The notes under the pieces: model-generated
Databases searched by the model: none
What the model was told of the DNA's origin: nothing
The model's input: the letters and a program-made list of their open reading frames with translations, nothing else
Shown here: positions 6,629 to 63,458 of the stretch, one piece after another
Position numbering within the stretch: position 1 is the stretch's first letter
How the letters are laid out: each line of letters begins with the position of its first letter
From: an uncultured Candidatus Saccharibacteria bacterium
Lineage (GTDB): Bacteria > Patescibacteriota > Minisyncoccia > Phycocordibacterales > PALSA-1337
Direction: 5' to 3'
DNA length: 64,000 nt
Assembly (NCBI GenBank): GCA_964367745.1
Contig: CAYIYK010000003.1
Span: 10,248 to 74,247, forward strand
Program-made: the position numbers and the translations under genes

Positions 6629-6644
6629 GCACAACCCTCTCACA

Positions 6645-6676
6645 GCCACGATTTTGCAAAAGATCGTGGCTTTTTT
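6645..6676 (+). terminator. Rho-independent terminator
   Basis: An 8-bp stem (gccacgat ... atcgtggc) with a 10-nt loop, followed by TTTTTT. It sits between two convergent genes. Confidence 0.6.
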
Positions 6677-16056: not shown

Positions 16057-17364
<1,308 letters not shown>

Positions 17365-17391
17365 TTATTTAAGATAAACAAAATAAAAAAT

Positions 17392-17426
17392 AACCTCCAG
17401 ATCTAGAATTTGGAGGTTATTTTTAT
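17392..17426 (+). terminator. Rho-independent terminator of eno
   Basis: An aacctcca ... tggaggtt stem with an 11-nt loop, followed by ATTTTTAT. Confidence 0.6.
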
Positions 17427-17896: not shown

Positions 17897-18610
17897 TTAT
17901 AACGCCTGCTCTACCCCACCCTCCATCAAATAATATCTCTTCAAAGGTTTTAGATTCTCATCTAGCTCATAGACTATCGGAACTGCATTCTTTATCTCAA
18001 TTCCAACTATCTCATCATCACTTACGTTATCTATATGCTTCACCATTGCTCTTATACTATTGTTACTTGCAGAAATTAGAACTCTTTTACCACTCTTTAT
18101 AGCTGGCACGATCTCTGATTCCCAATATGGCATTACTCTCTTGATAGTATCTTCTAGTGATTCACCTAGCGGCAATTCACTTTCTGACAGATCAGCATAC
18201 ATTGGATCATGTCCTGGATATCTAGGATCATCTTTTGTTAATTGAAGTGGCTTGTCACTAAAACTTCTTCTCCATTTGTGTACTTGTTCTGGTGAATACT
18301 TTGCACCAATATCAGCATGCTTTTGTCCCTGCAAAGCTCCATAATGTCTTTCATTTAATCTCCAAGAGTATTTTATTGGTAAATCATTTATACCAATTTC
18401 ATTTACTACAGTATTTAAAGTATCTTTTGCTCTTTTAAGAACTGAACAAAAGGCCAAATCAAAACCGAAACCTGCATTTTTTAGATTTTTACCTGCAACT
18501 TTGGCTTCCTCAACTCCCTTCTCTGTTAGATCAACGTCTGTCCAACCACAAAACATCTTTTCAATATTATAAACTGTCTGTCCGTGTCTTATTATTACTA
18601 ATTTATACAT
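17897..18610 (-). CDS. gpmA: 2,3-bisphosphoglycerate-dependent phosphoglycerate mutase
   Basis: MYKLVIIRHGQTVYNIEKMFCGWTDVDLTEKGVEEAKVAG..., containing the RHG phosphohistidine motif. 237 aa. Confidence 0.9.
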   Translation of the reverse strand: MYKLVIIRHGQTVYNIEKMFCGWTDVDLTEKGVEEAKVAGKNLKNAGFGFDLAFCSVLKRAKDTLNTVVNEIGINDLPIKYSWRLNERHYGALQGQKHADIGAKYSPEQVHKWRRSFSDKPLQLTKDDPRYPGHDPMYADLSESELPLGESLEDTIKRVMPYWESEIVPAIKSGKRVLISASNNSIRAMVKHIDNVSDDEIVGIEIKNAVPIVYELDENLKPLKRYYLMEGGVEQAL

Positions 18611-26312: not shown

Positions 26313-26408
26313 ATGTTATATCCTATGCTATTTAAAAATTTTTGCAACAAAAAAAATCCACCCAGTAAAACCAGGTGGAAATTGTGTTGAGTGTTCAGTA
26401 CTCGAAGA

Positions 26409-28477: not shown

Positions 28478-28507
28478 TGTCTAAGTAAATACAGTAATCT
28501 CTCAAAG

Positions 28508-28537
28508 CCCTCACGTAAAAAGCGTGGGGGTCTTTTT
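28508..28537 (+). terminator. Rho-independent terminator
   Basis: A ccctcacg ... cgtggggg stem (8 bp, one G-U pair) followed by TCTTTTT. Confidence 0.5.
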
Positions 28538-49676: not shown

Positions 49677-50687
49677 CTATTTTATTATCTTAAAAAGCTT
49701 GTCTGACAAAATAGACAATGAATGCTTGTTTGAAAAATCACTTAGTCTAGACAAAATATCCAATCGCTCTTTTTCAGAATAATTCATAACTCTCTCAATT
49801 TTATTTTTTAATTCATCTGTATCCCCTTGTTTAAAAATCAAATCATCACTTATTTCTCCTCTCAAATTATCATTTGAAGCAATAACAATACAACCACAAG
49901 CCATAGCCTCAAATATTGTCTTATCATACATTCCACTTGAAGATAGATTTATAAAAATTTCGTATTTAGAATATAGATCTATAGTTTCAATATTTGGAAC
50001 TCCTTTATGAAATTCTATTAATCCAGAAGATTTATTTTTTAATTCTTCATAATAAATTTTATCTTTTTCGATTGGATCACCGTAGACTGCAACTTTGATA
50101 CTTGGATCATTTATTTTATTTATTACATCTACTAAAACATGAATATTTTTTGAAGGTGATATTCTACCTATAGACAATATAGATTTTCCTAATCTAGTTA
50201 TATTTTTATTCGGTTTAAAGTTTTCTAAATCTACACCTACTGGCATTATTTCAGTCTTTCTGTATTTTGCTGTATATGAAAACTTAGATGTGCAAAACAC
50301 CTTTTTACAGAACATTGAAGCTATATCAGTAAGCATTGAACCTGAATGATGATTCCTCCACATGTATATATTCTTATTCATGATCTTCCACATAACTCCA
50401 GCGAGTAAGATATACTCTTGGTTCATATGAACAAAAACACTGTTGTATTCATTTCTCAATCGCCAAATATATTTATAAAAATTTAAAATATATTTTATCT
50501 TTGATTCCCCTTTTTCTTTACCCAAAGAAAATACTCTAACATTTTTAGGTAAATCGTATTCGCCTTTATAAAGACATATTACATTTACACTTTCATAGTT
50601 TTCTGAGAAAACTCTTACCCAATTATGAAAAAAGCCTAGTACAGGATCATTTTTATCAATCTTTTGAGTTATGATTAATAATTTCAT
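49677..50687 (-). CDS. GT4-family glycosyltransferase
   Basis: The C-terminal domain is GRISPSKNIHVLVDV...KVAVYGDP...IFINLSSSGMYDKTIFEAMACGCIVIASN (the EX7E-type motif). Confidence 0.65.
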   Translation of the reverse strand: MKLLIITQKIDKNDPVLGFFHNWVRVFSENYESVNVICLYKGEYDLPKNVRVFSLGKEKGESKIKYILNFYKYIWRLRNEYNSVFVHMNQEYILLAGVMWKIMNKNIYMWRNHHSGSMLTDIASMFCKKVFCTSKFSYTAKYRKTEIMPVGVDLENFKPNKNITRLGKSILSIGRISPSKNIHVLVDVINKINDPSIKVAVYGDPIEKDKIYYEELKNKSSGLIEFHKGVPNIETIDLYSKYEIFINLSSSGMYDKTIFEAMACGCIVIASNDNLRGEISDDLIFKQGDTDELKNKIERVMNYSEKERLDILSRLSDFSNKHSLSILSDKLFKIIK

Positions 50688-51775
50688 TTAATTTTATCTA
50701 TAATCTTTGAAGCTATATCTTCGCTTGTCCAATCGACAATACTTGCTCCTACATCCTTTGCGATACCTACGTCAGTTGAGATTATTTTGCAATTATTCGC
50801 TTCAGCTTCTTTGAATGTAAGACCGTAACCTTCATACCATGAACAAACTAGAAATACATCGCAACCTTTATAGTATGAGGTGAGATCAGTCTGCCACCCT
50901 TCAAATACAATATTTGATGAAATCTTCAGAATTTCAGATTTTCTTTTAAGATAATCCTGCATTGTTCCAGAACCGACAATCACGAGTCCTGTATCTGGTT
51001 TTTTAGCCAGAACAATCTTCATCGCATCTATAGCCATTGAGAAATTCTTTTCAGCTTCTATTCTTGAAACCATAAGAATGATATTTTTAAATTGAGGGAA
51101 TTTTTCTTTTAAAATAAAAGATGTTTTATCATTCTTTATATAATCAATATTTATATCTATAGGTTTTACTATTATATCTTCTGGATTAAATCCCCTTTTA
51201 GCTAGTGAATCTGCAATTTTATTTGATACTACTCTTATGATATTTGCATGATTTAAAGTAAAACGAGATATAAAAAGTCTTATTCTATTTAAAATAGAAT
51301 TCAAAATACCGATTCTTGCATCGACGAAATACGGACTATGCAGATCGGTATGTATTTGTATCAACAATTCAGAATTCTTTCTTTTACTATTTAGACATTT
51401 CCCCACCAAAGCGGTTTCAAAAGGATCTTGGCAAGTTATAAGTATTGGTATTTCTGAGTTTATTTCATTAATAATTTTTACACCGATCTTTCTCGCATCG
51501 CTTACATAGTTCCATCTTACAAATGATTTCGTAGAATAGATTTTGCAGTTTTTTGCTATTTCTTCATCATTAACTTTTGAATCTGAAAAGACAATAATAT
51601 GTAATTCTTTATATTGCTTTGAATATTCAAGCATTCTTCTTCTAACAGCACTTTTCTCTACAAGTATTTGTCTATCAGTTGAAATCATTATCACAGAATG
51701 ATTGGAATAATCTTTATATGTTGTTTTATAAACATTATTTGATTCTTTCATAAATCGAAATGATTTCATTCCCAA
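50684..51775 (-). CDS. GT4-family glycosyltransferase
   Basis: ILMVSRIEAEKNFSMAIDAMKIV...GLVIVGSG...VFLVCSWYEGYGLTFKEAEANNCKIISTDVGIAKD. Confidence 0.7.
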   Translation of the reverse strand: MGMKSFRFMKESNNVYKTTYKDYSNHSVIMISTDRQILVEKSAVRRRMLEYSKQYKELHIIVFSDSKVNDEEIAKNCKIYSTKSFVRWNYVSDARKIGVKIINEINSEIPILITCQDPFETALVGKCLNSKRKNSELLIQIHTDLHSPYFVDARIGILNSILNRIRLFISRFTLNHANIIRVVSNKIADSLAKRGFNPEDIIVKPIDINIDYIKNDKTSFILKEKFPQFKNIILMVSRIEAEKNFSMAIDAMKIVLAKKPDTGLVIVGSGTMQDYLKRKSEILKISSNIVFEGWQTDLTSYYKGCDVFLVCSWYEGYGLTFKEAEANNCKIISTDVGIAKDVGASIVDWTSEDIASKIIDKIK

Positions 51776-52757
51776 TATTCTCCCAACTATGAACCCAATT
51801 AAACTTCTTTACCTTATCTGCTTGTATTTTTCTATTCTTAGGGTCAGATATCCAGACAATCTTTTCGACTATATCATTTTTATTCATTGGATCTATAAAA
51901 ATCGCGCAATCTTTTACTCTATCTGATATACCATTCTCTTTTGTAAGAATAAAAGGAGTACCAACTCTTATGGCGTCAAAAATCATATTTGGACTTATAT
52001 CGCCAATCGAATTTAAAATCACCGCATAAGATCGTCTCATTCTCTCTTGGAAATTATCATAGACTGCTTTTGTAGTATCGAATTCTATATCTTCAAAACC
52101 TTTTTCTTTGACTTTATCCTGAGCAATTTTAAATGAACTCTTTAACAATTCTAGATTCTTCCACTTCAATTCTCTTGTACCAGCAACAAAAACTCTATTC
52201 TCTGGCTCTATTTGTTCATCTCTTTCTCCACAGAAATTCTCAACGATCATATTCTTTTCTGAATCAAGTTTATATACTTTTTCAAAAATATCTCTTTGCC
52301 ATTTTGTACTAAATATTATTGCTGAAGCATTCCTCATAGAATCACCTCCAACTTTAAATATTACTTTTTCTTTTTTAGATAGCTTATTAAGTGATGTATT
52401 ATAGAAATTTTTAAATAAAACCAAGTCTCCTGTTCTTTCAACATAATTTTCCCATAAGAAATCTCCTCCAGTTCTTATGATGTATTTTTTCCTCATAAGC
52501 TTGCAGGCATACATAGTAGGTACTGCTGCACTCCATGTATCAAGTACGAGTATCAAATCCGCATTCCATCCTTTTCTAAAAATCTTTAGAAAAAATAAAA
52601 AGTGTCTGAGGAATTTTGGGAATGCTCTCTCCCAACGATATGCAGCAACTTTTACATCATGACCCTGCTTTTTCCAGGTTTCATAAAGATTTCTAGCATA
52701 TTGAGCTGGACCACCAATATCTGGTGGATATATTCCTGATGAGATTAGAATTTTCAT
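51735..52757 (-). CDS. GT4-like glycosyltransferase; N-terminal paralog of 46570-47709
   Basis: MKILISSGIYPPDIGGPAQYARNLYETWKKQGHDVKVAAYRWE, with a GT-B C-terminal domain. Confidence 0.5.
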   Translation of the reverse strand: MKILISSGIYPPDIGGPAQYARNLYETWKKQGHDVKVAAYRWERAFPKFLRHFLFFLKIFRKGWNADLILVLDTWSAAVPTMYACKLMRKKYIIRTGGDFLWENYVERTGDLVLFKNFYNTSLNKLSKKEKVIFKVGGDSMRNASAIIFSTKWQRDIFEKVYKLDSEKNMIVENFCGERDEQIEPENRVFVAGTRELKWKNLELLKSSFKIAQDKVKEKGFEDIEFDTTKAVYDNFQERMRRSYAVILNSIGDISPNMIFDAIRVGTPFILTKENGISDRVKDCAIFIDPMNKNDIVEKIVWISDPKNRKIQADKVKKFNWVHSWENIGNEIISIYERIK

Positions 52758-53944
52758 ATTACCTTTAAGAATACCTTATTCTTCATATCACTTGCAATGA
52801 GGTTCCATTGATACTTTCTTTCTACCATATCCAAAGCATTTTTGACTATTTTCTCTTTTAAACTCTTATCATTTAAAAGCATTTCAACTTTCCAAGCTAT
52901 GCTCTTTGGATTTTTTACTTCACACAAAAGGCCTGTTTCTCCATCTTTAAGAAAATCTACTATTCCTCCAACCGGTGTTGCTATAACAGGAATTCCAGCA
53001 GCCATCGCTTCTATATATGAATTACCAAAACCTTCAGACAAAGATGGTCTTATGAAAATATCTGATACATGGAGATATTTTGGCATATCTACATGTTTAA
53101 CAAAACCTAAGAAGATCACTCTGTTATCGAGATTTAATCTCTTAGTTCTTTGCTTTAGCATTTCTTCTTCATGACCTGTACCCAAGACAAGGAATTTAAC
53201 ATTTTCTGGTAGATATGTTAGAGAATCAATGATATCTATAGTTGCATTTTTCTCAACCAATCTACTTGTAGTTACAATAAAAATATCTTTATCTTTTTTA
53301 TTCAGACTCTTTTTTAAATCATTAAATTCATTTTCATTTTTTCTATTTGAAAATAGAGAAAAATTCACGCCATTTGGTACAACAACAATCGGTGAACTTG
53401 CTCCCATATTTTTTGACCAGGTTGATAGGAAATTTGATATTACTTGAACAATATCCGCCTTTCTAAAAATCCTCATGAAAGATGATTTGAATATTCCTTG
53501 GCGAATCTTGAAGTTATCACCTTCTTGTATTGAAAGTACAAATGGAATATTTGGATTGAATATTTTAAATAAATAACCAGCAAAACCAGCATAACTTGCC
53601 ATCATTGACCATACTAAATCGTATTTATTTTTTCTATTTAGTTGTAGTGCCTTTATAAAAGCAAAAACTGGAAAAGTTAGTTTTGATAATGGGAATATCT
53701 TTGAACTTTTTGTATTACTACCAAACCAAGGCATACCAGCTCTATATACATTTATATTCCCTATTCTTTCAAATTTAGGAGCCTGTTTTCTTAAGGTTAT
53801 CATATCGAATTCCATATCAGACGGAAGGATACGATCAGTAATTTCTTTAATCGCTATTTCTGCCCCACCTATGAATCTTGGATAGTAAACTAGCGAAAAA
53901 ATGAGTATTTTCTTACTTTTTTGTTCATTTTTTACTTGTTCCAT
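52754..53944 (-). CDS. GT4-family glycosyltransferase
   Basis: IVTTSRLVEKNATIDIIDSL...FLVLGTGHEEEMLKQ...FIRPSLSEGFGNSYIEAMAAGIPVIATPVGGIVDFLKDGETGLL. Confidence 0.7.
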   Translation of the reverse strand: MEQVKNEQKSKKILIFSLVYYPRFIGGAEIAIKEITDRILPSDMEFDMITLRKQAPKFERIGNINVYRAGMPWFGSNTKSSKIFPLSKLTFPVFAFIKALQLNRKNKYDLVWSMMASYAGFAGYLFKIFNPNIPFVLSIQEGDNFKIRQGIFKSSFMRIFRKADIVQVISNFLSTWSKNMGASSPIVVVPNGVNFSLFSNRKNENEFNDLKKSLNKKDKDIFIVTTSRLVEKNATIDIIDSLTYLPENVKFLVLGTGHEEEMLKQRTKRLNLDNRVIFLGFVKHVDMPKYLHVSDIFIRPSLSEGFGNSYIEAMAAGIPVIATPVGGIVDFLKDGETGLLCEVKNPKSIAWKVEMLLNDKSLKEKIVKNALDMVERKYQWNLIASDMKNKVFLKVI

Positions 53945-53948
53945 TTTA

Positions 53949-55823
53949 TTACTTTACCTTAAGTACATCACGAAGTACATCTTCAGGAACCTCTCTTTTT
54001 GTGTCACTTTTTTCGTGATGATTAGCATGACTTTTATGTATTTCATTTGGTTTATGGTCACTTGAAGTATTTTGATGATTCGAATGATTTGAACCATCTG
54101 AATCTTTTTTTACATGCTCGTCCTTATGTGCCAAAACTGATGCCAAAGCACTCTTTAATTCATTTATTCTTTGTGGATGTGCATCTTTATGATGATTATG
54201 AGCCTTAGGTGTATTTGTTAGAGAATTCAGAGATACAGACTTTAACTTAGGAAGATTTGGTTGGGGTTTTGGATAATTTGATTGTTGCACATGATTTTGG
54301 ACACTTGGCTGTACAGGTGCTTGGACTGATTGTTGAGGTGGTTGCTGAATAGGCTGTTCTGCGACAATTGGCTTTGGTGGAGGTGGAGGTATATGTGCAG
54401 GTGCAGGTGTGGGTGCAACTGTAGCTACTGGTTTGGGCGGTTGTGTATTTGTTGCAGGAGTACTAGAACCATTCTGAGTAGAATTCGAAGCGGTAGATGC
54501 ACCGGGCGTAGGATTCTTTGGAGTTACAACAGGCTTTATTGGTGCAAGCCATTCTTCGATTTTCTTTTCTACTTCTGGTCTCTTACTAGCAAACTGTCTT
54601 CTTGATTCTTCAATCACAGCAAGAGCATTGGACTTCTCTGGTAAAGGAATGGGTGGCAATGTTGTAGCAGAAAATGGTGATGAACTTATACCATCAATCA
54701 TCAGTTTCAAATATATTTGAAATATTCCGAGATTAACAATATCTTCAGCGGTGAACTGTGGTGCGAATTCTTTTTCCAAAACTTCTGCATCATAAGCGCC
54801 AACACGGAACACGATCATTGTTCCAACGTTTCCAAAAACCGCAGCTCTAACCTCTTCTTCCATTTGCTCTATATACTGGTGAGCCATAGTAAGATTCAGT
54901 TTATATTTTCGAGCTTCAGAGAGAATATCTGCAAAAGATTCATTTGCAAATGATTGGAATTCGTCTACGAATAGATAGAAGTTTGGAAGTTTTTTTATAA
55001 CATTATCTGACACATCAGCACGAGAAAGTGCAGCGAGATATATCTTGGTTATTATCATTCCACCCAAAAGATTTGCATTCGATTCTCCGATTCTTCCTTT
55101 TGATAAGTTAACTATAAATATCTTACTCTTATCCATCATTTCACGGAGATTGAAAGATGATTTTGGTTGACCGATCATATTTCGTATCAGAGCATTCGCA
55201 GTGAACTGACCGATTTTATTTTGTATTGCAGGAACAGCTTCGGCAGCCATTCTTTCTGTATAGTTTGCAAATTCTTGTACCCAGAATGATTTTACTGATG
55301 GATCAGTAACACAGGCCACTACTTGCTTCCTGAATTCTTTATCAGAAAGCATTCTATTTACCCCAAGCAGGGTTGCGTCAGGATATTCAAGTAAAGCCAA
55401 AAGAGTATTTGTAAGAATATACTCCATTCTCGCTGACCAAGCATCTTGCCAGATCTTTTTGAATGTACTCATAAGACCAGATACAACTAGATGTCTTTTG
55501 TCATGATCAACGTTTTCAAGTACGTTGAATGATATAGGATAGTCCATATCAAAAGGTGCAAAATACACAACGTCTTGTCTTCTATTCTCAGGAATATATT
55601 CTAGTAGCAATTCCGCTGTCTTACCGTGAGGGTCGAGGAAGGCCATACCTTCCCCATTTTTTATATCTTGCACAGCCATGTTTTCAAGTAGAGTAGATTT
55701 ACCCATACCTGTCTTACCGATCACATAAACGTGCTTTGTTCTATCTTTGGCTTTAATACCAAAACTTACCTTTTTATTTCTGGCATCAGTTTGACCAAAA
55801 TATGTAATCTTTTCTTCATTCAT
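53949..55823 (-). CDS. Soluble P-loop ATPase of the VirD4/TraD (type IV coupling protein)/HerA-like superfamily, with a long C-terminal Pro/Gln-rich then His-rich disordered tail
   Basis: 624 aa. Walker A: HVYVIGKTGMGKSTLLENM. Walker B: NFYLFVDEFQSF. There is no N-terminal TM anchor. The C-terminal ~200 aa read PKPVATVAPTPAPAHIPPPPPKPIVAEQPIQQPPQQSVQAPVQPSVQ... and then HNHHKDAHPQ...HSNHQNTSSDHKPNEIHKSHANHHEKSD. Confidence 0.5.
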   Translation of the reverse strand: MNEEKITYFGQTDARNKKVSFGIKAKDRTKHVYVIGKTGMGKSTLLENMAVQDIKNGEGMAFLDPHGKTAELLLEYIPENRRQDVVYFAPFDMDYPISFNVLENVDHDKRHLVVSGLMSTFKKIWQDAWSARMEYILTNTLLALLEYPDATLLGVNRMLSDKEFRKQVVACVTDPSVKSFWVQEFANYTERMAAEAVPAIQNKIGQFTANALIRNMIGQPKSSFNLREMMDKSKIFIVNLSKGRIGESNANLLGGMIITKIYLAALSRADVSDNVIKKLPNFYLFVDEFQSFANESFADILSEARKYKLNLTMAHQYIEQMEEEVRAAVFGNVGTMIVFRVGAYDAEVLEKEFAPQFTAEDIVNLGIFQIYLKLMIDGISSSPFSATTLPPIPLPEKSNALAVIEESRRQFASKRPEVEKKIEEWLAPIKPVVTPKNPTPGASTASNSTQNGSSTPATNTQPPKPVATVAPTPAPAHIPPPPPKPIVAEQPIQQPPQQSVQAPVQPSVQNHVQQSNYPKPQPNLPKLKSVSLNSLTNTPKAHNHHKDAHPQRINELKSALASVLAHKDEHVKKDSDGSNHSNHQNTSSDHKPNEIHKSHANHHEKSDTKREVPEDVLRDVLKVK

Positions 55824-55875: not shown

Positions 55876-57441
55876 TTAATTATGACTGTATATTGTATAT
55901 AAATTATCACTATATACCCTCTTCAAATTTGAGTATTTTAATAAATCATTTCTATTATCCTGTATTACATATTGAATATCGTATTTTTCTAGATTTTTTA
56001 ATATCCTTTCTTGTGTGTTTGAACTCATAACATCATGAATTCTCTCTGGCTTTGATATCCACTGCCCCGCATATAATGTCCAAAAAACATAATTTCTTGA
56101 ATAAAGCGGTATATATTGTGAAAGAGATTCCGGTGCCATAAATATTGAATCTTTAGAATTCGACTTTATCCAATTAAGTATGGGGACATATCTTTGAACA
56201 TAAATAGTATAATCTAAAGAGTTTTTATATGAATTAATTTGAATCAAAATAGAATTAAAAATACAAAGAATAGACAGCAGGTATATTATTGCAATACAAA
56301 TTTTTGATTTTATATTGTCAGACAGAAATTCCTTTATAAAATAGACTATTGAGATAACCAAGACTGGACTGAATACATACATTTCGAAATGACCATATTG
56401 CATTATAAGTCCAGTTATAACATGTTCATTTCTAGTTAGAAAACAAGCAGATATTAGGCCTGAAATAAATATAAATTCATCATTAATAATTTTATTCTTC
56501 TTATAAACCAAAAAGAGCAGCGTAGAACAGACTATAAAAATTGATATTCCAAACAAACTAACATCAGGAATATGACTCATTCTTAAATATTCATGTGGGA
56601 TGGTTAAATAGTACTCATGAGACATTAGATTCACAATCTGATAAAAGACTGGAATAGCCAATATTATACCTACTGATAAACTGACAACAAGACCCTTAAG
56701 TCTGTCAAATTCTTTTCTAAAAAAATAAATCCCAATAAAAACTAGATTTAACACAGTTAAATATGCATATGTAAAGAAATAAACATAGAATGACAAACCA
56801 AAGAAAATACCGAGGATGATATACCACAGTCTAGTATTCTTTTTAATTGCTAAATACAAAATATTTAAATATAAGAAAAAATACAAAGAACTGAATTGAG
56901 GATTAACAGGTCTAGAGAATATAAGGAATTGATCCTCATCAGTTACAAACCTAAACAGATTCAATAAATCATGAATATTTAACAGATCAACGAAATTCAA
57001 GAGATTATACCCAAGCACAATAAACAGTGACCCGAGTATAGATATGTGAATATTCCTAGTAATTCTATCGAGCAGCAAAAAAGACAGAAGGAAGATAATG
57101 ATCGGCAACACAAGTTCGTACAAAATCTTTAAATCCAGCGTATCTATACTTAATATGATACCTGGCAGTGCCAATATCATAGACGAAATAGATGAATCAA
57201 AGTGTGGGAAATTATAGCCATACTCTTTTATAAAAGGATTACAATTAAACGTACAACCCATGTATGCTCCTTGAATTTTATTCAGATATAGTGACTCTGC
57301 ATCGGTATTCATTATTGGTATACCACTAAAGTTAGTACTGTGAATAAATAAAATATTTGGCAATACATAAATAACACCGCAAACTAGAGAGATGATAAGG
57401 ATCGATAGAAATTTCTTAGAAAACATAAATAAATTATACAT
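55876..57441 (-). CDS. Large polytopic membrane protein immediately downstream of pilA. It is a candidate pilin glycosylation/assembly factor, in the position of tfpO/pilO O-oligosaccharyltransferases. The likely ATG is at 57441; the six-frame ORF starts at a TTG at 57444.
   Basis: About 520 aa with at least 12 predicted TM helices and several larger loops. It is on the same strand as pilA, 51 nt downstream. No soluble enzymatic motif was recognised by eye. Confidence 0.35.
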   Translation of the reverse strand: MYNLFMFSKKFLSILIISLVCGVIYVLPNILFIHSTNFSGIPIMNTDAESLYLNKIQGAYMGCTFNCNPFIKEYGYNFPHFDSSISSMILALPGIILSIDTLDLKILYELVLPIIIFLLSFLLLDRITRNIHISILGSLFIVLGYNLLNFVDLLNIHDLLNLFRFVTDEDQFLIFSRPVNPQFSSLYFFLYLNILYLAIKKNTRLWYIILGIFFGLSFYVYFFTYAYLTVLNLVFIGIYFFRKEFDRLKGLVVSLSVGIILAIPVFYQIVNLMSHEYYLTIPHEYLRMSHIPDVSLFGISIFIVCSTLLFLVYKKNKIINDEFIFISGLISACFLTRNEHVITGLIMQYGHFEMYVFSPVLVISIVYFIKEFLSDNIKSKICIAIIYLLSILCIFNSILIQINSYKNSLDYTIYVQRYVPILNWIKSNSKDSIFMAPESLSQYIPLYSRNYVFWTLYAGQWISKPERIHDVMSSNTQERILKNLEKYDIQYVIQDNRNDLLKYSNLKRVYSDNLYTIYSHN

Positions 57442-57471
57442 CAAAAAACACCCTATGGGTGTTTTTTGATG
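57439..57471 (-). terminator. Perfect 15-bp inverted repeat with a 3-nt loop between pilA and the downstream gene. On the minus-strand transcript it is a hairpin followed by a U-rich tract whose 3' arm contains the downstream gene's AUG.
   Basis: catcaaaaaacaccc-tat-gggtgttttttgatg on the plus strand, about 25 nt after the pilA stop codon. The minus-strand RNA reads 5'-caucaaaaaacaccc-aua-ggguguuuuuugAUG-uauaauuuauuuauguuuuc. Confidence 0.55.
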
Positions 57472-57495
57472 TAACCGTATTGTTACCAGATTGTA

Positions 57496-57975
57496 TTAAG
57501 ACGCAGGGCAAGCTGTAGCATTTATTGCAAGAACAGTTGTAACTTGTCTTGAAGCGCCTGTATTATCTACACACCATCCAACTGGTGTACCACTCACTGA
57601 AGCCTTCAGCGGAGCCCAGATAACCCATGTTGCTGATGCATCGTGACATTGTGCAGTGTTCCAAGTTGAAGCAGTTCCATCAGCAAATACCGCAGCTGTT
57701 CCTCCGAAAGCGGCTTGAGCAGCCATTACACTGTCTCCAATAACATTAGCACCTGTTAACGCACATACGGCATCATAAACATTAGTTCCATTATCATAGA
57801 ACAATTCTGCCTCAGCTCTAGCACCTGCTAGGTTTGACTTTATAGCTGTATCAGCTCCCTTTGAACGTGCTGTGTTTAGTGAAGCCAAAACAACTGATGA
57901 CAATATACCGATAATAGCGATAACTACAAGCAACTCAATCAATGTAAAACCTTTTTGCAAATATGATTTCTTCAT
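57496..57975 (-). CDS. pilA: Type IV (class III signal peptide) major pilin
   Basis: MKKSYLQKGFTLIELLVVIAIIGILSSVVLASL is the prepilin leader (a G-F cleavage site, with Glu at +5). The C-terminal disulfide loop is CVDNTGASRQVTTVLAINATAC, followed by PAS-stop. The protein is Ala/Gly/Thr-rich. pilC, pilT and pilB lie upstream. Confidence 0.85.
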   Translation of the reverse strand: MKKSYLQKGFTLIELLVVIAIIGILSSVVLASLNTARSKGADTAIKSNLAGARAEAELFYDNGTNVYDAVCALTGANVIGDSVMAAQAAFGGTAAVFADGTASTWNTAQCHDASATWVIWAPLKASVSGTPVGWCVDNTGASRQVTTVLAINATACPAS

Positions 57976-58015
57976 AACGAAATAATTAACTTAATAAATA
58001 AAACTAATAATTCAA

Positions 58016-58044
58016 CTTATACACGTAAGTATATCAAACCTCAA
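58016..58044 (-). promoter_or_regulatory. Candidate sigma70-type promoter for pilA
   Basis: On the minus strand: TTGAGG, then 17 nt, then TATAAG, about 40 nt upstream of the pilA ATG. No sigma54-type GG-N10-GC element was found. Confidence 0.3.
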
Positions 58045-58085
58045 AAAAATAGCGCAATATCGTATGGGGATAAGTAGTTGATAAC

Positions 58086-59294
58086 TTATTGAGCACTTGC
58101 AACGTTGTATATAGGTATAAGAACTGAAGCAAGCAGTGTAGCAACACCAAGTCCCAAAAGGACGATCATAGCGGGTTCAATAAGATCGACTAGTGCATCT
58201 ACAGCAGTTACTACTTCTCTAGAGTAAAATCTCGACAAAGTCTTCAATATTGCACCGAGTTCTCCTGATTCTTCTCCCACTCTCATCATTTGAATCATAA
58301 TTCCGGGGATTTCACCGTTACCTGAAAGTGCTTCTGATACCGTCTTTCCTGCTTTTACTGAATCTACAGCATCAGAAAGTATTTTTTTATAAATACTATT
58401 GTTTATAACAGATGAAGTTAGTTCTAGTGAACGAATCATTGGAATTCCTGACATAAGCATAGTATTCATATTGTCAGAAAGTCTTGCCCAATATAGTTTC
58501 CTAAAAAGATTACTCATATAAGGGATACTAAGTTTGAATTGATCAAAAACGATTGTGCCACTTGGAGTTCTTATATATCTAATTAAAATAAATCCAAGCA
58601 CCACAACGATCGCAACAACAATAAAGCCTTTTTCTACCAAGAAATTACTTATACCCAGAACAACTTTTGTATATATTGGAATATCTTGTCCAGACTCAGT
58701 CAAAATTGTACTGATCTTTGGAATAACCATAGTGAACATAAGTATCATCACGGTTATAAATGTCATCATAACGAAAGCTGGATATATAAGAGCACTCTTG
58801 GCTTTTGAAACAAGTTCATATGTTCTATCTAGATAGTCAGCAAGGTAAGCAAAAGTCTCATTTAGTTTACCTGACTCTTCTCCTGCTTTTACCATACTTA
58901 CATAAAATTCTGAGAATACCTTTGGATGTTTCTCTAGAGCGCTTGATATCTGACTTCCCGCTTGTAGATCATCGGCGATCTGGATTAGCTTTGTACCCAA
59001 AACTTTATTATCACATTCAGCGCCTAAGAGTCTAAAGATTCTCAGAGCCGAAACCTGTGCTTCAAAAAGTGTTGCTAGTTGTCTTGAAAGTATAACTATC
59101 TCTTTATTTGACACTCTATCAAGAAAAGATAGGTTCATTGAAAGAAGTCCTCCCTTTTTATCTGCTTCATTTATAGAAGTAATAACCAGGCCTCTTCTTT
59201 GCAAAGAAGCAATAGCAATATCGACATTCGCAGCATCTATAGAGCCTTTTTGTTGTGTTCCCGCTTGATCTACTGATTGATAATTAAATAACAT
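58086..59294 (-). CDS. pilC: Type IV pilus inner-membrane platform protein (GspF/PilC family)
   Basis: 402 aa. It has two T2SS_F repeats (LATLFEAQVSALRIFRLL...; LSRFYSREVVTAVDALVDLIEPAMIVLLGLGVATLLASVLIPIY) and 3 TM segments. Confidence 0.9.
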   Translation of the reverse strand: MLFNYQSVDQAGTQQKGSIDAANVDIAIASLQRRGLVITSINEADKKGGLLSMNLSFLDRVSNKEIVILSRQLATLFEAQVSALRIFRLLGAECDNKVLGTKLIQIADDLQAGSQISSALEKHPKVFSEFYVSMVKAGEESGKLNETFAYLADYLDRTYELVSKAKSALIYPAFVMMTFITVMILMFTMVIPKISTILTESGQDIPIYTKVVLGISNFLVEKGFIVVAIVVVLGFILIRYIRTPSGTIVFDQFKLSIPYMSNLFRKLYWARLSDNMNTMLMSGIPMIRSLELTSSVINNSIYKKILSDAVDSVKAGKTVSEALSGNGEIPGIMIQMMRVGEESGELGAILKTLSRFYSREVVTAVDALVDLIEPAMIVLLGLGVATLLASVLIPIYNVASAQ

Positions 59295-59302
59295 ATAAAA
59301 TA

Positions 59303-60361
59303 TTATATCATTCTCTCAAGATTTTTTGGATTCGCAGAATTTATATAAGCATTTTCAGGACTAATCTCACCTCTTCTTACAAGTTCTGCCAAAGAACGAT
59401 TCATATCGATCATACCTTCTGCAGAACTAGTCTCTATAACAGTATTTATTTCATGTATTCTTTTTTCTCGGATTAGGTTTGCAACCGCAGAATTGTTTAT
59501 CAGAAGTTCATATGCTGGTATAAGTCCTCCTGAAATTCTAGGAATCAATCTTTGAGAGAAAATACCTGTCATACTTCCTGCAAGTTGAACTCTAATTTGA
59601 TCTTGTTGAGAGGCTGGAAAAGAGTCGATGATACGGTTTATAGTCTGAGAAGCAGTATTTGTGTGTAGTGTTGAGAATACCAAGTGACCTGTTTCAGCAG
59701 CAGTAACCGCTGTAGATATAGTCTCTGGATCTCGCATCTCGCCCACCAAAGCAACGTCTATATCTTCTCGAAACATTGCGATCAAAGCATTCTTAAAGTC
59801 TGGAGTATCTATTCTGACCTCTCTTTGATCTATAATAGATTTCTTTGATTCATAAATATATTCAATAGGATCCTCTATCGTCATAATGTGCTCATTTCTA
59901 GTTTGATTTATTATTTCAATTAAAGAAGCCAAGGTTGTACTTTTTCCTTGTCCGATCGGTCCTACGCAAAGGAAGAATCCTTGTTGTTTTCTAGTAAAAG
60001 ATTCAAGAATTGGTGGAAGATTCAACTCTGTAAGAGTCTTTATTTGTTTTGGAATAAGTCTAAGGGCAATAGAGATGAGGCTTTGTCTATAATACGCATT
60101 TCCTCGGAATCTTGCATTGGTCAAACTATAAGAAAAGTCTACGTCTTTGTCTTTATCAAAAAGTTCTTTATTTTCATCAGAAAGAAAAGTATTTATATAA
60201 CCTTTCATATCTGCAGCGGTGATTATAGGTTTTTTTGCAAGAGGTATAAGGCTTCCAGATACTCGAATAAGTGGGTGTCTACCTTCAGAAAGATGAAGGT
60301 CTGATGCACCCTCGTTTATCACGGTTGTAACAAGTTCTTCTATATCCCTTTTATAATCCAT
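59303..60361 (-). CDS. pilT: Type IV pilus retraction ATPase
   Basis: 352 aa. GFFLCVGPIGQGKSTTLASLIEIIN (Walker A), HIMTIEDPIEYIY, VALVGEMRD, and the His box FSTLHTN. Confidence 0.9.
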   Translation of the reverse strand: MDYKRDIEELVTTVINEGASDLHLSEGRHPLIRVSGSLIPLAKKPIITAADMKGYINTFLSDENKELFDKDKDVDFSYSLTNARFRGNAYYRQSLISIALRLIPKQIKTLTELNLPPILESFTRKQQGFFLCVGPIGQGKSTTLASLIEIINQTRNEHIMTIEDPIEYIYESKKSIIDQREVRIDTPDFKNALIAMFREDIDVALVGEMRDPETISTAVTAAETGHLVFSTLHTNTASQTINRIIDSFPASQQDQIRVQLAGSMTGIFSQRLIPRISGGLIPAYELLINNSAVANLIREKRIHEINTVIETSSAEGMIDMNRSLAELVRRGEISPENAYINSANPKNLERMI

Positions 60362-60381: not shown

Positions 60382-60768
60382 CTATTTTTTAATATTTGAA
60401 CAAATCTTCTCAACTTCAGACATAACTTCAGAAGGAATTGTGGTTGCTTTTATTATATAACCATCAACATTCAAAGCTTTTGCTCTAGCAATATCATCAG
60501 GAAGACCTTGATTTGTTAGCATGATTATAACTGATTTCTTTACCAAACCTTCTTTTCTTAGATTTGAAAGTAATTCGATACCATCCATTCCTGGCATAAC
60601 AATATCTAAAAGTAGAATATCAGGTTCCAATCCATCTCTTATTAACTTCAACGCTTCTTCTGTATCTGCTGATGTGTGGACGATAAAATCATTCTTTGAA
60701 AACTTCAGAGAATACATATCGAGTAGAAACTTGTCATCATCTACAAAAAGTATTGAGCGTTGTTTCAT
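60382..60768 (-). CDS. Single-domain response-regulator receiver (CheY/PilH-like)
   Basis: 128 aa. ILFVDDD...DILLLDIVMPGMDGIELL...VIIMLTNQG...GYIIKA. Confidence 0.7.
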   Translation of the reverse strand: MKQRSILFVDDDKFLLDMYSLKFSKNDFIVHTSADTEEALKLIRDGLEPDILLLDIVMPGMDGIELLSNLRKEGLVKKSVIIMLTNQGLPDDIARAKALNVDGYIIKATTIPSEVMSEVEKICSNIKK

Positions 60769-60791: not shown

Positions 60792-62507
60792 TTAAAGCTT
60801 ATTCACTTCTTCAAACGGTATTTTCTTTTCAAATGCTTTTAGCATTGCATCTTCTTTCATCGTAATCATCCCCTTTTGTCTCAACAATCTACTTATCTCC
60901 AATTCAGTCGGGCTTTTCAAAATAACATTTTCTATCTCTTTATCCATTTTAAATATTTCAAATATTGCCATACGTCCTCTAGTACCCTTTGGACAATCTG
61001 GAGTCGGCTCTATTCCATAAACTGTATCTGAAAAAGGTATTTCTTTTTTATATTGTTCTGGAAGATCTGAGAATTGCTTATCGATCATCATTTTTATACT
61101 TCCTTCAACCGGTATTGGTTTACCAGCACCTGGAGGGAAAGTTGAAACAAGTCTTTGGGCAATAGCTAGGATAAGAGTCGGAGCAATAAGGTATGGATCT
61201 ACTCCCATGTCTATCAGACGAGGAATAACACCAGCAGAGTTGTTAGTGTGTAGTGTTGAGAATACCAAGTGACCAGTAAGCGCTGCTTGCACAGCAAGCT
61301 GCGCAGTCTCTTTGTCTCGGATCTCTCCCACCATGATTATATCCGGGTCTTGTCTAAGAGTTGTTCTAAGTCCTGATGCAAAAGTATAACCAATTTCAGG
61401 GTGTACTTGTGATTGACTCACGCCGTCCATATTGTATTCAATAGGATCTTCGAGAGAAAGAACGTTCATACTCTCTCTATCAACTTCGTTTAGCATAGAA
61501 TAAAGTGTTGTAGATTTTCCTGAACCTGTCGGACCTGTGATTAGAATAAGTCCATAAGGTCTTGTAATTGCATCTTTTATATAAGCGAGGTTTTTCGGGG
61601 TTAGACTCATATCGTCTATCTTTTTTACTCCCTTTTCCTGATCGAGGATACGCATCACAACCTTCTCACCATAATATGCCGGGAAAGTTGAAACTCGGAA
61701 GTCGATTTTTCTTCCATCAATACGCGCAGAGAATCTACCGTCTTGAGGTTTTCTCTTTTCATCAAGCTTCATATTACATAAAACTTTAATACGAGCCACA
61801 ACAGCATTGTGCACTTGTGGAGGCAGAACTAGACTGGTATTTAGAGTACCGTCCACACGGAATCGGACACGAACCTTATCTCTCATATGTTCGATATGAA
61901 CGTCGGAAGCATTACCTTCTGTAGCGTATCGAACTATAGTAGCTACGATCTTTATAACTGGAGCATCTTCTATAATAACTGCATCACTTTTCTTTTCAGA
62001 CTTATTTTGTGCCAAATCTAGAGTTGCAGCTTTGTCTACAGATAGTACAGATTCAAGTTCAGTAAGAGCCTTTGATACTTCTCCACCAATTCCTTTGTAT
62101 GATTCAATTACTTTTTGGAAATCATCTATAGTGATAAGAAAAACTTTGTATGGAATATTTTTCTTTGAGGCAATGAAGTTTAGAGCATCTCTAGCTTCGA
62201 TATTGTCTGGGTCTACAATTCCAACCTCGAGTGTACTGTCATGAATTCCAACTGGTACGAATTTATAATGTTTCGCTGATTCTTCTGGAATATAATCCAA
62301 TGCTTCAAAAGGAACCATAGTATCCCCTAGGGCTTTTACAGGAATATTCAGGAACTCTCCTCTTGCAGTGAGAATATCTTCAGGTCTTATACCCTTTTCA
62401 ATTAAAATTTGATCCAAAGCCTCACCCTTTGCAGCGAGTTTTTTTATTTCTGCAACATCATCTTTGGTTATAAGATTTTTATTTAATAAAATATCAACAA
62501 TACTCAT
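60792..62507 (-). CDS. pilB: Type IV pilus assembly/extension ATPase (GspE/PilB family) with an N-terminal T2SSE_N domain
   Basis: 571 aa. GLILITGPTGSGKSTTLYSML, LSLEDPIEY, VGEIRDKETAQLAVQAALTGHLVFSTLHTN, and a tetracysteine-like region (CPKGTRGR...). Confidence 0.9.
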   Translation of the reverse strand: MSIVDILLNKNLITKDDVAEIKKLAAKGEALDQILIEKGIRPEDILTARGEFLNIPVKALGDTMVPFEALDYIPEESAKHYKFVPVGIHDSTLEVGIVDPDNIEARDALNFIASKKNIPYKVFLITIDDFQKVIESYKGIGGEVSKALTELESVLSVDKAATLDLAQNKSEKKSDAVIIEDAPVIKIVATIVRYATEGNASDVHIEHMRDKVRVRFRVDGTLNTSLVLPPQVHNAVVARIKVLCNMKLDEKRKPQDGRFSARIDGRKIDFRVSTFPAYYGEKVVMRILDQEKGVKKIDDMSLTPKNLAYIKDAITRPYGLILITGPTGSGKSTTLYSMLNEVDRESMNVLSLEDPIEYNMDGVSQSQVHPEIGYTFASGLRTTLRQDPDIIMVGEIRDKETAQLAVQAALTGHLVFSTLHTNNSAGVIPRLIDMGVDPYLIAPTLILAIAQRLVSTFPPGAGKPIPVEGSIKMMIDKQFSDLPEQYKKEIPFSDTVYGIEPTPDCPKGTRGRMAIFEIFKMDKEIENVILKSPTELEISRLLRQKGMITMKEDAMLKAFEKKIPFEEVNKL

Positions 62508-62882: not shown

Positions 62883-63458
62883 TTATTGTTTTAACCAAAA
62901 TGTTTTAACTTCAACACTGTAATCATACACCCCAGTTTCATTTGATTTAATTGTAATTTTTGAAATCTCAATAATTCTTAGACTTGCTTCGATATCTTTT
63001 AGAAAATTTAAGAAATTCTGATAGTTACTAGAAACATCGAAGTTCAAAGTAACAGTACTGTAACTACCTTGTTTTGGTGCTGAAACCCCCATACCTTGCC
63101 CCATAGCTGTATCAACTACTGGTTCAGAAGCGTCTTTTGGTGTGGTGGTCTTCACATTCTTCATTACAATACCGTGCCTTGCAGCGACACCACTTACATC
63201 AATTATAAGTCTTACATTGTCTACATTGTCTGGCAAAATCTTCTCCAGTCTTTCTTGATCATCCTGACTTATCTTATTGTAATTATCCCTAACAGTGTCT
63301 CTTACCTTTACCAGTTTCTCTGAATTCTTAAGAGCTTGTTCATATTGTGCATTTACCTGTCTAATAGCCTGCAATTCATCGATTTTTGCACGAGTAAAAG
63401 TAAAATAAATTCCGACTGACAAAACTATGAGGATGAGAGGTGTGAGGTTTTTGTTCAT
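62883..63458 (-). CDS. pilO: PilO-like type IV pilus alignment-subcomplex protein
   Basis: 191 aa. N-terminal TM, then a coiled coil (ELQAIRQVNAQYEQALKNSEKLVKVRD), then a C-terminal ferredoxin-like domain. Its position is right after pilN-like. Confidence 0.5.
   Translation of the reverse strand: MNKNLTPLILIVLSVGIYFTFTRAKIDELQAIRQVNAQYEQALKNSEKLVKVRDTVRDNYNKISQDDQERLEKILPDNVDNVRLIIDVSGVAARHGIVMKNVKTTTPKDASEPVVDTAMGQGMGVSAPKQGSYSTVTLNFDVSSNYQNFLNFLKDIEASLRIIEISKITIKSNETGVYDYSVEVKTFWLKQ

Follow-up and report, generated by a model that had tools for sequence, protein, structure and literature searches.

Stem-loops follow the genes for the major pilus subunit in the papA-papH pair of E. coli, tcpA-tcpB of Vibrio cholerae, and fimA-fimB of Dichelobacter nodosus, where the ratio of subunit to accessory protein is set via partial read-through or mRNA processing. 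A terminator placed after a highly expressed pilin gene is a well-known and ordinary arrangement. Intrinsic terminators of the A-tract type, which are bidirectional in shape, combine a GC stem-loop with a U tract directly behind it and a 5′ A tract able to pair with that U tract, and they are found a few tens of nucleotides past the stop codon. In P. aeruginosa, the gene immediately past the major pilin encodes a pilin glycosyltransferase, as seen in pilA-tfpW and pilA-tfpO (bioRxiv 10.1101/2020.04.19.049825). Glycosylation of pilins in Saccharibacteria has been predicted, not demonstrated (PMC11623550). At the level of gene starts, leaderless transcription in bacteria is recognized by a Pribnow box located 6 to 8 nt from the start, and the leaderless “group C” of GeneMarkS-2 has been described mainly for Actinobacteria and Deinococcus-Thermus (PMC6028130). 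Our search for literature on leaderless expression in Patescibacteria or Saccharibacteria returned nothing relevant.

The window analyzed here, a stretch of 64 kb taken as a whole, carries a Patescibacteria (Saccharibacteria-like) type IV pilus locus. The pilin gene directly follows pilB, a response regulator gene, pilT, and pilC, and is itself followed by the gene of a membrane protein. The features of the junction between these last two genes are collected in Table 1. Taken together, they are best explained, in our view with reasonable likelihood, by a terminator of the pilin message, a start of the downstream gene at the second of two in-frame ATG codons, and a TATAAT box that would act as a leaderless promoter between them.

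Table 1. Features of the pilin-downstream gene junction, in window coordinates
Feature	Position	Strand	Basis
Type IV pilin gene, 159 aa, MKKSYLQKGFTLIELLVV...	57496..57975	-	Pfam N_methyl, E = 2.3e-9
Minor 5-bp helix GUAAC-N6-GUUAC, overlapping the 5′ arm of the terminator by 3 nt	57471..57486	-	Fold
Perfect 17-bp hairpin with 3-nt loop	57437..57473	-	Folding, repeat finder; every pair kept in 5 relatives
A6 tract on the 5′ side of the core, able to pair with the U tract	57462..57467	-	Sequence; same layout elsewhere
GC-rich terminator core CACCC-aua-GGGUG	57449..57461	-	Read from sequence
U6 tract directly 3′ of the GC core; predicted release site ~57440-57445	57443..57448	-	Sequence, terminator scan
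ATG1, in frame, within the 3′ arm; probably not the functional start	57439..57441	-	Sequence, ORF
Perfect TATAAT, overlapping the stem base by 2 nt; putative −10 element or non-SD start signal	57433..57438	-	
ATG2, second in-frame ATG, proposed true start (MFSKKFLSILI...), unpaired in the predicted fold	57424..57426	-	
Multi-pass membrane protein with GT-C glycosyltransferase fold	55876..57426	-	AlphaFold2 and Foldseek

The hairpin at the end of the pilin gene

Read on the minus strand, positions 57439 to 57471 form CATCAAAAAACACCC-ata-GGGTGTTTTTTGATG. The perfect 15-bp hairpin of the original prediction is real and is in fact longer, given that the repeat finder extends it to 17 of 17 perfect pairs (57437-57453 with 57457-57473) around a loop of 3 nt. 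The 15-bp version folds as RNA with −19.9 kcal/mol (z = −6.4), which was equalled in 0 of 200 shuffles, and the 17-bp version reaches −22.9 kcal/mol (z = −7.8). The in silico fold that had been proposed as a check returned the hairpin as both the minimum free energy and the centroid structure in a 121-nt context. None of the perfect inverted repeats with closely spaced arms in the 64 kb is longer, and the maximum reached in 20 mononucleotide shuffles of the window was 8 to 13 bp, which bears out the view that this length lies far beyond chance; a chance origin is ruled out by the folding shuffles and the window shuffles alike. A search for the core pattern that tolerated up to three mismatches found one copy in the window (expected number, 0), and on this ground a repeat family or mobile element was rejected.

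On the sense strand of the pilin gene, the hairpin lies 22 nt from the TAA stop codon, and its parts follow each other in the order A6, GC-rich core, loop, complement of the core, and U6. The core ACACCC-aua-GGGUGU (5 bp plus one A-U pair) has a folding energy of −7.2 kcal/mol, which becomes −11.7 kcal/mol when the A and U tracts are included. The junction displays a stable GC-containing stem-loop, an adjoining U tract, and a sense-strand site soon after a stop codon, all of which characterize terminators, as does the retention of structure rather than sequence at the orthologous position. The site heads the list of the terminator scan as its longest-stemmed match. Four other sites in the window combine a strong hairpin with a T run, all of them intergenic and just past stop codons, and one of them, the enolase terminator at 17386-17424, has the same A-tract/U-tract shape. 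This use of canonical terminators elsewhere in the window supports the same reading here. We infer that the hairpin, very probably, ends the pilin message as a Rho-independent terminator; its anatomy, its position, and the equivalents in related loci agree with the intrinsic terminator that was predicted originally.

Once the U6 tract is transcribed, the GC core CACCC/GGGUG would fold and the A6 tract could zip up with U6, and most pilin transcripts would be released at about 57440 to 57445. The expected 3′ end thus falls in or just after the U6 tract and not at about 57435, where it had been placed before. The stable 3′ hairpin would shield the pilin mRNA from 3′ exonucleases, and the outer four to six pairs, which include an ATG, would form on read-through RNA only. 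Relative to the A-tract terminators, with which it shares the GC stem-loop, the direct U tract, the pairable 5′ A tract, and the site shortly after the stop codon, this hairpin has a short GC core, and its pairing extends 6 bp past the A and U tracts into the ATG and the first 2 nt of TATAAT. Termination may be leaky because the GC core is short (5 to 6 bp, −7.2 kcal/mol). A terminator at this place would naturally set the abundant message of the pilin apart from an accessory gene of low abundance. The papA-papH, tcpA-tcpB, and fimA-fimB pairs likewise have a hairpin between an abundant subunit gene and accessory genes of lower abundance, and the expected outcome is again more subunit mRNA than downstream mRNA. 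The present locus differs from them in that a start signal or promoter belonging to the downstream gene itself appears to follow right after the hairpin.

The related loci come from genomes labelled Candidatus Saccharibacteria or Patescibacteria, and it is through these relatives that the organism of the window is assigned. Conservation of the inverted repeat, also proposed earlier as a check, was found for the repeat itself in close relatives and for the architecture in distant lineages. Past the pilin gene, 10 lineages (13 loci) have an equivalent hairpin, and in relatives of the window the orthologous position of the element is unchanged, with no rearrangements in the flanks. All 17 pairs are kept in four to five close relatives (69 to 83% protein identity); one pair shows a compensatory change, being C-G in two sequences and U-A in three, and the loops differ (ata, tat, atgt, and atga). 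In eight further lineages, the hairpin after the pilin gene is a different one. Those of L006, L010, L016, L017, L018, and L019 (41 to 48% identity) are non-homologous hairpins located 12 to 34 nt past the pilin stop codon, with stems of 13 to 19 bp, energies of −15 to −23 kcal/mol, and A/U tracts. Weaker forms occur in L009, where a GC-rich stem is followed by a U tract and has no A tract, and in L021, where a 7-bp stem (−9.1 kcal/mol) has no adjoining U run. The 8-nt gap between the pilin gene and the downstream gene of L005 contains no hairpin, which shows that the terminator is not obligatory for the gene pair.

Start codon and TATAAT box of the downstream gene

It had been claimed that the 3′ arm of the hairpin ends in the AUG of the downstream open reading frame. 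An in-frame ATG (ATG1) is indeed found there, where it makes up the three final pairs of the 3′ arm in the 15-bp version and is preceded by an in-frame TTG at 57444, but it is probably not the true start. The second in-frame ATG (ATG2, 57426) lies 15 bases past ATG1, and we consider it quite likely to be the start of the downstream gene. Gene callers chose ATG2 in two relatives that are 83% identical (P0002 and P0003) and ATG1 in P0004 and P0028, and the N termini of the family fit either start in length and do not discriminate between them. ATG1 is kept in frame in five close relatives and has no equivalent in other lineages. The 12 nt between the two codons are invariant in five relatives, as is TATAATTTATTT, while the codons after ATG2 diverge; this invariance next to free variation fits a signal better than it fits N-terminal codons. 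The single indel between ATG1 and ATG2 is an insertion of 3 nt in L003, by which the frame is kept. Moreover, the hairpins of L006, L009, L010, L016, L017, L018, L019, and L021 contain no in-frame start codon, and in most of these lineages the start codon is located 14 to 46 nt past the hairpin.

According to the original prediction, the hairpin would serve both as a terminator and as a translational block, with ATG1 as the real start, occluded on read-through RNA, and the downstream gene silenced at two levels. The full pairing of ATG1 in the predicted fold is what this model expects, and it can also draw on the reading frame and conservation of ATG1 in the five relatives, on the frame-preserving insertion in L003, and on the ATG1 calls for P0004 and P0028 with N-terminal lengths that are compatible with either start. 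We nevertheless regard it as unlikely. Sequestration of a start codon is absent from the eight other lineages, whose hairpins lack one, and ATG2 is unpaired and has a TATAAT box, whereas ATG1 has neither a Shine-Dalgarno (SD) motif nor a TATAAT at the spacing typical of this genome. Across five relatives, no synonymous change is seen in the 12 nt that would be read as Y-N-L-F, although the downstream codons vary, and the CAT...ATG of the repeat may be no more than a palindrome's outer pairs. A start inside a stem of −23 kcal/mol, with nothing to open it, would in addition yield almost no protein.

The start proposed instead, ATG2, has no SD motif and is preceded, at a distance of 6 nt, by a TATAAT that occupies positions −12 to −7 relative to its A. 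This box is invariant in the five relatives, and a TAnnAT equivalent is found past the hairpin in other lineages. Indeed, a TATAAT, TATTAT, or TAAAAT box is present in every lineage with an intergenic region, 6 to 9 nt before the start in 9 of 10 lineages (the exception being L009), with T1, A2, and T6 of the box kept across lineages. Gene calls and the family alignment, not the box, defined the starts in the other lineages. The pattern extends across the window, where 19 of 55 other genes have a box 5 to 10 nt before the start, compared with 6.5% of random positions (p = 8e-10), and SD-like motifs were found at 5 of the 55 genes only. A TGn precedes 5 of the 19 boxes, about 6-fold above the background of 4.6% (p = 0.0014). 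Box frequency is similar for operon-internal genes (11/31) and first genes (8/24). No −35-like element is enriched at the boxes (mean best match of 2.8 of 6 positions, against 2.5 for the background), and the promoter scan left 57433-57438 unlisted for want of a −35 match. The case for a promoter is for this reason built on the −10 box, the distance to the start, and the TGn.

Promoter activity and the choice of ATG2 are what we infer from these observations: on balance, the box is somewhat more likely to be a promoter for leaderless mRNA than a translation signal. The downstream gene would start at ATG2, 6 nt past a TATAAT that abuts the terminator, and the box would work as a −35-independent −10 element that gives rise to an mRNA with no leader or almost none. 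The junction could then act as a compact terminator-promoter insulator that uncouples the abundant pilin from a low-level accessory enzyme. The promoters of group C (PMC6028130) share with this junction a TAnnnT box 6 to 8 nt before the start, the absence of an SD motif, and enrichment of the pattern across genes; the boxes described here differ from them in that they also precede operon-internal genes and have no detectable −35.

The box could alternatively be a non-Shine-Dalgarno translation signal on a leadered mRNA. The downstream gene would then have no promoter of its own, the glycosyltransferase would be made from leaky read-through only, and initiation would be dampened by the base of the stem, which reaches 2 nt into the box and stops 10 nt short of ATG2. 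Boxes that are as common before operon-internal genes (gaps of 0 to 40 nt) as before first genes are in keeping with this model, as are the missing −35 enrichment and the weak GC core, and the 8-nt gap of L005 shows that co-transcription of the two genes is possible. The motif, however, matches the sigma-70 −10 consensus exactly, and its T1, A2, and T6 persist from lineage to lineage; the TGn of extended −10 elements is enriched about 6-fold, and the spacing is the 6 to 8 nt described for leaderless promoters (PMC6028130). These properties make a leadered message improbable.

Improbable alternatives: palindromic DNA and attenuation

Both strands of the palindrome fold equally, and a perfect palindrome does not by itself tell, from the window sequence, which strand or which molecule is active. 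The repeat might on this account act as DNA, as a protein-binding operator, a recombination site, or the end of a mobile element. This is very unlikely, given that other lineages keep the shape and the U tract and not the sequence, and that their hairpins contain G·U pairs that hold only in sense-strand RNA. Such pairs occur in six of the eight further lineages, and in five of the six among L006, L010, and L016 to L019, where the other strand would have A·C mismatches. Moreover, the element occurs once in the window, and in relatives it is found at the orthologous site with no rearrangement around it.

Read-through into the accessory gene might be governed by a regulated attenuator, also raised in the original prediction, or by a riboswitch-like switch. 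Such a device would be served by a terminator between two functionally linked genes and by the 5-bp helix that overlaps the 5′ arm, but it is very improbable, because the 22 nt between stop codon and stem leave no room for a sensor or leader peptide, the helix is trivial against −23 kcal/mol, and no Rfam family matched at the gathering threshold. That helix is kept in L001 to L003 and not in L004; it is the sole competing helix, and an antiterminator was rejected because it is too weak and not conserved. The Rfam search at the gathering threshold covered the whole window and gave no match, and at E ≤ 1 the junction returned just sub-threshold matches to generic hairpins, miRNAs, and the rimP leader.

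The downstream protein and its predicted GT-C fold

Pfam gave no match for the downstream membrane protein. Its AlphaFold2 model (pLDDT of 87.8, pTM of 0.88) shows a multi-pass domain in the membrane whose first external loop is long, and the best 31 Foldseek matches in the PDB are all GT-C enzymes (E values down to 6e-8, TM scores of 0.5 to 0.58), among them AglB, PglB, STT3, DPY19, AftA, ArnT, ALG, AftD, Emb, and PMT. A conserved acidic motif follows the first transmembrane helix, as in GT-C enzymes: D48 and E50 (TDAES) do not vary among 19 members of the family, and helix 1 of the model ends at residue 34. On the strength of this model, the protein has a GT-C glycosyltransferase fold.

In 10 lineages the gene comes directly after that of the pilin, and in L017 to L021 it has a GT2 gene as its neighbor. 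This synteny makes the protein a candidate, possibly, for a pilin glycosyltransferase. With TfpW it shares the nature of a multi-pass GT-C membrane protein encoded after the pilin and an acidic motif after helix 1, which is D48-x-E50 here and DDX in TfpW. No sequence similarity between the two was detected, and no Pfam match was found here. TfpW has 646 aa and a TPR domain, whereas the family described here has 517 to 522 aa and a small globular C-terminal domain, with the pilin as its putative acceptor.

The hairpin itself carries little weight, being most likely yet another intrinsic terminator behind a strongly expressed pilin gene. A broader reading, which we put forward tentatively and hold to be less than an even prospect, is that of a conserved terminator-promoter module of Patescibacteria that fires a leaderless mRNA for an undescribed, pilin-dedicated GT-C family, in a lineage where leaderless expression is dominant. 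If this were true, the terminator would abut, and in some lineages overlap, a −35-independent TATAAT box, and it would follow from the box pattern across the window that the lineage expresses its genes predominantly in leaderless form, in part from promoters inside operons. For the annotation of uncultured Patescibacteria, it matters that gene starts here appear to be marked by a TATAAT box 6 to 9 nt upstream and not by SD sites. The start calls of the downstream gene are inconsistent across databases, with versions of 478, 516, and 521 aa, the shortest of which loses the first transmembrane helix. Finally, the predicted GT-C fold of a protein that has no Pfam match and is encoded right after the pilin would provide a concrete candidate for pilin glycosylation in Saccharibacteria.

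Hairpin downstream of the pilin gene

The type IV pilus locus lies on the minus strand of the window, which has a G+C content of 33% and whose nearest relatives are metagenome-assembled genomes that carry the label Candidatus Saccharibacteria or Patescibacteria.

Genes of the pilus locus and its neighborhood
Feature	Position (nt)	Strand
PilO-like protein	62883-63458	-
PilB	60792-62507	-
Response regulator	60382-60768	-
PilT	59303-60361	-
PilC	58086-59294	-
Pilin, with N-methylation motif	57496-57975	-
Membrane protein, 517-522 aa	55876-57426/57444	-
VirD4/TraG-like ATPase	53949-55823	-
Glycosyltransferase genes (three with GT1/GT4 domains, a fourth with a borderline GT4 match)	49677-53944	-

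Between the pilin gene and the membrane-protein gene, the minus strand reads ...GCGTCTTAA TACAATCTGGTAACAATACGGT TACATCAAAAAACACCC ATA GGGTGTTTTTTGATGTA TAATTTATTT ATG TTT TCT AAG AAA... The 15-bp perfect hairpin originally noted here is real but was drawn too short: a repeat finder extended it by 2 bp on each side, to 17 perfect base pairs (57437-57453/57457-57473) with a 3-nt loop. RNA folding gave −19.9 kcal/mol for the 15-bp version (z = −6.4) and, with all 17 bp, −22.9 kcal/mol (z = −7.8), with 0 of 200 shuffles as good in either case; in a 121-nt context, MFE and centroid prediction both return the hairpin. No other perfect close inverted repeat in the window reaches its length, which, as had been claimed, is far beyond chance, given maxima of 8 to 13 bp in shuffled windows; its core occurs once, versus 0 expected.

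The hairpin begins 22 nt past the stop codon of the pilin gene and consists, 5' to 3', of UACAUC, A6, CACCC, the loop AUA, GGGUG, U6, and GAUGUA. The inner part, from A6 to U6, has the form of a textbook intrinsic terminator with an A tract on its 5' side; its GC core folds with −7.2 kcal/mol by itself and −11.7 kcal/mol with the A/U tracts. Other strong hairpin-plus-T-run sites lie just past stop codons at 17386-17424 (+), 6644-6671 (+), 28507-28531 (+), and 26357-26379 (−), the first of which follows the enolase gene (16072-17364) and has a long A-tract/U-tract stem shaped like that of the pilin hairpin. Because the genome has such terminators elsewhere, the pilin hairpin is ordinary among the local terminators, of which it is the most stable.

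The membrane protein belongs to a small homologue family, which was compared in L001-L006, L009-L010, and L016-L021. The close relatives L001-L004 (69 to 83% protein identity) share the junction of the window, and all 17 pairs are kept in the five sequences. One pair, C-G in two sequences and U-A in three, has changed in both arms; the loop varies (ata, tat, atgt, atga), and the spacer from the stop codon is divergent. Eight distant lineages (L006, L009, L010, L016-L019, and L021; 41 to 48% identity) also encode the protein after a pilin gene and an intergenic region, each with its own different hairpin 12 to 34 nt past the pilin stop codon. Six of these hairpins are strong, with stems of 13 to 19 bp, −15 to −23 kcal/mol, and A-rich 5' and U-rich 3' extensions; that of L009 is a GC-rich stem followed by a U tract, and that of L021 has a 7-bp stem only (−9.1 kcal/mol). 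G·U pairs, possible only in pilin sense-strand RNA, occur in six of the eight. No hairpin was found at the junction of L005, where 8 nt separate the two genes, and in L020 the membrane-protein gene has no pilin gene next to it.

The hairpin is real, non-random, and conserved, and past the pilin gene it is the structure, not the sequence, that has been kept. Such a pattern is expected of a hairpin that terminates transcription or stabilises the 3' end, and it speaks against a DNA operator or the end of a mobile element. With its terminator anatomy and its structure kept across lineages, the hairpin is best explained as an ordinary Rho-independent terminator and 3' stabiliser of the pilin mRNA, in line with the original prediction. 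The further proposal of regulated attenuation finds no support: the 22 nt between stop codon and stem leave no room for a sensor, the sole competing helix (GUAAC/GUUAC, 57471-57486) shares 3 nt with the stem and is missing from L004, and Rfam yielded no RNA family for the window or the junction.

Start codon and the TATAAT-like box

The proposed sequestration of the start codon needs translation to begin at the in-frame ATG within the 3' arm (ATG1, 57441-57439). Several lines favor instead the second in-frame ATG, past the hairpin (ATG2, 57426), which is unpaired in the predicted fold. A perfect TATAAT (57438-57433) stands directly past the stem, 6 nt before ATG2, and a TAnnAT box follows the hairpin in every other lineage having an intergenic region (TATAAT in L006, L009, L010, L017, and L019; TATTAT in L016 and L021; TAAAAT in L018). 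With start codons defined from gene calls and the family alignment, the box lies 6 to 9 nt from the start in all of these except L009. None of these eight lineages has an in-frame start codon inside its hairpin, and in L006 and L010 the box cannot be coding, since the sole possible start in the open frame, the one used, follows it. Across the five close relatives the 12 nt TATAATTTATTT do not change, and the codons past ATG2 vary freely (FSKKFLS, FSSKFLS, ISKKLLL, FYKKCII); this pattern fits a signal at the nucleotide level better than the end of a protein that is under least constraint. ATG1, for its part, is in frame and conserved in close relatives and was picked by two gene callers, and the sole indel between the two ATGs is 3 nt long. 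On balance, ATG2 is the probable start, and the appearance of sequestration probably arises as a by-product of the outer pairs of the palindrome.

Public gene calls also disagree on this start (57313-57444, −). Starts of the ATG1 type give 521 aa and those of the ATG2 type, in relatives, 516 aa; the NCBI protein version (478 aa) begins at Met44, which would remove the first transmembrane helix. The stem base reaches 2 nt into the box in the window versus 4 nt in L004 (2990-3012) and L010 (~730-745), and the overlap therefore recurs independently.

Boxes matching TATAAT at at least five of six positions occur 5 to 10 nt before the start in 19 of 55 other window genes, against a background of 6.5% at random positions or all ATG triplets (p = 8e-10). 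Examples are pilC, the response regulator gene, 14815-15987, 4753-5709, and 17897-18610. SD-like motifs precede only 5 of the 55. In bacteria, leaderless transcription has a published signature, a Pribnow box 6 to 8 nt from the start codon (PMC6028130). With the A of ATG2 as +1, the TATAAT occupies exactly −12 to −7, and its reading as a promoter −10 element giving a leaderless mRNA agrees with the exact sigma-70 consensus, with T1, A2, and T6 being kept across lineages, and with enrichment of the extended −10 TGn (5 of 19 boxes versus 4.6%, p = 0.0014). However, −35 enrichment is absent at the window boxes, which are equally frequent before operon-internal genes (11/31) and first genes (8/24), and for these reasons the box may instead be a start signal that acts in translation. 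It marks ATG2 under both readings. As a promoter, it would make the junction a terminator-promoter insulator, and the stem would have no bearing on how the leaderless mRNA is translated. As a translation signal, it would mean that the downstream protein is made from read-through RNA, and the stem, overlapping the box by 2 nt and ending 10 nt before ATG2, could damp initiation, a weaker form of the sequestration idea.

The 110 nt upstream of the pilin gene (57976-58085, −) lack an SD motif and hold TTGAGG-17 nt-TATAAG some 40 nt ahead of the ATG; the pilin gene appears leadered, unlike many neighboring genes.

A pilin-linked GT-C gene

The downstream protein has no Pfam match. Its AlphaFold2 model is confident (pLDDT 87.8) and matched only GT-C glycosyltransferases in the PDB (AglB, PglB, STT3, DPY19, AftA, ArnT, and others; E down to 6e-8), and D48-x-E50, past the first helix, is invariant in the family. 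In 10 lineages the gene comes directly after a pilin gene, and in relatives a GT2 gene often adjoins it. The arrangement is similar to the pilA-tfpW pair of Pseudomonas aeruginosa, in which the pilin is glycosylated by a GT-C enzyme whose gene immediately follows pilA (bioRxiv 10.1101/2020.04.19.049825). By analogy with TfpW, the protein is a candidate pilin glycosyltransferase. In Saccharibacteria, major pilins are highly expressed, and their glycosylation has been predicted, not shown (PMC11623550).

The pilin ends in ...ACPAS (57496-57510, −), and this Cys-Pro-Ala-Ser end is common to L001-L004 and L016. The P. aeruginosa 1244 pilin is glycosylated at a C-terminal serine. A like role here is only a lead, as pilins of other lineages end in CPAN, CP, or C. 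The four-gene glycosyltransferase run that comes right after the pilus and ATPase genes may supply glycan for the GT-C enzyme. The VirD4/TraG/TrwB-like coupling-protein ATPase adjoining the pilus locus carries a proline/glutamine/histidine-rich low-complexity tail of ~250 aa, and such an ATPase is also found beside the pilus locus in the distant relatives L018 and L021.

The hairpin itself is of low interest; more interesting are the pilin-linked GT-C family and the start-signal box, whose distribution across the window suggests that this Patescibacteria genome uses either leaderless transcription pervasively or a non-SD start signal.
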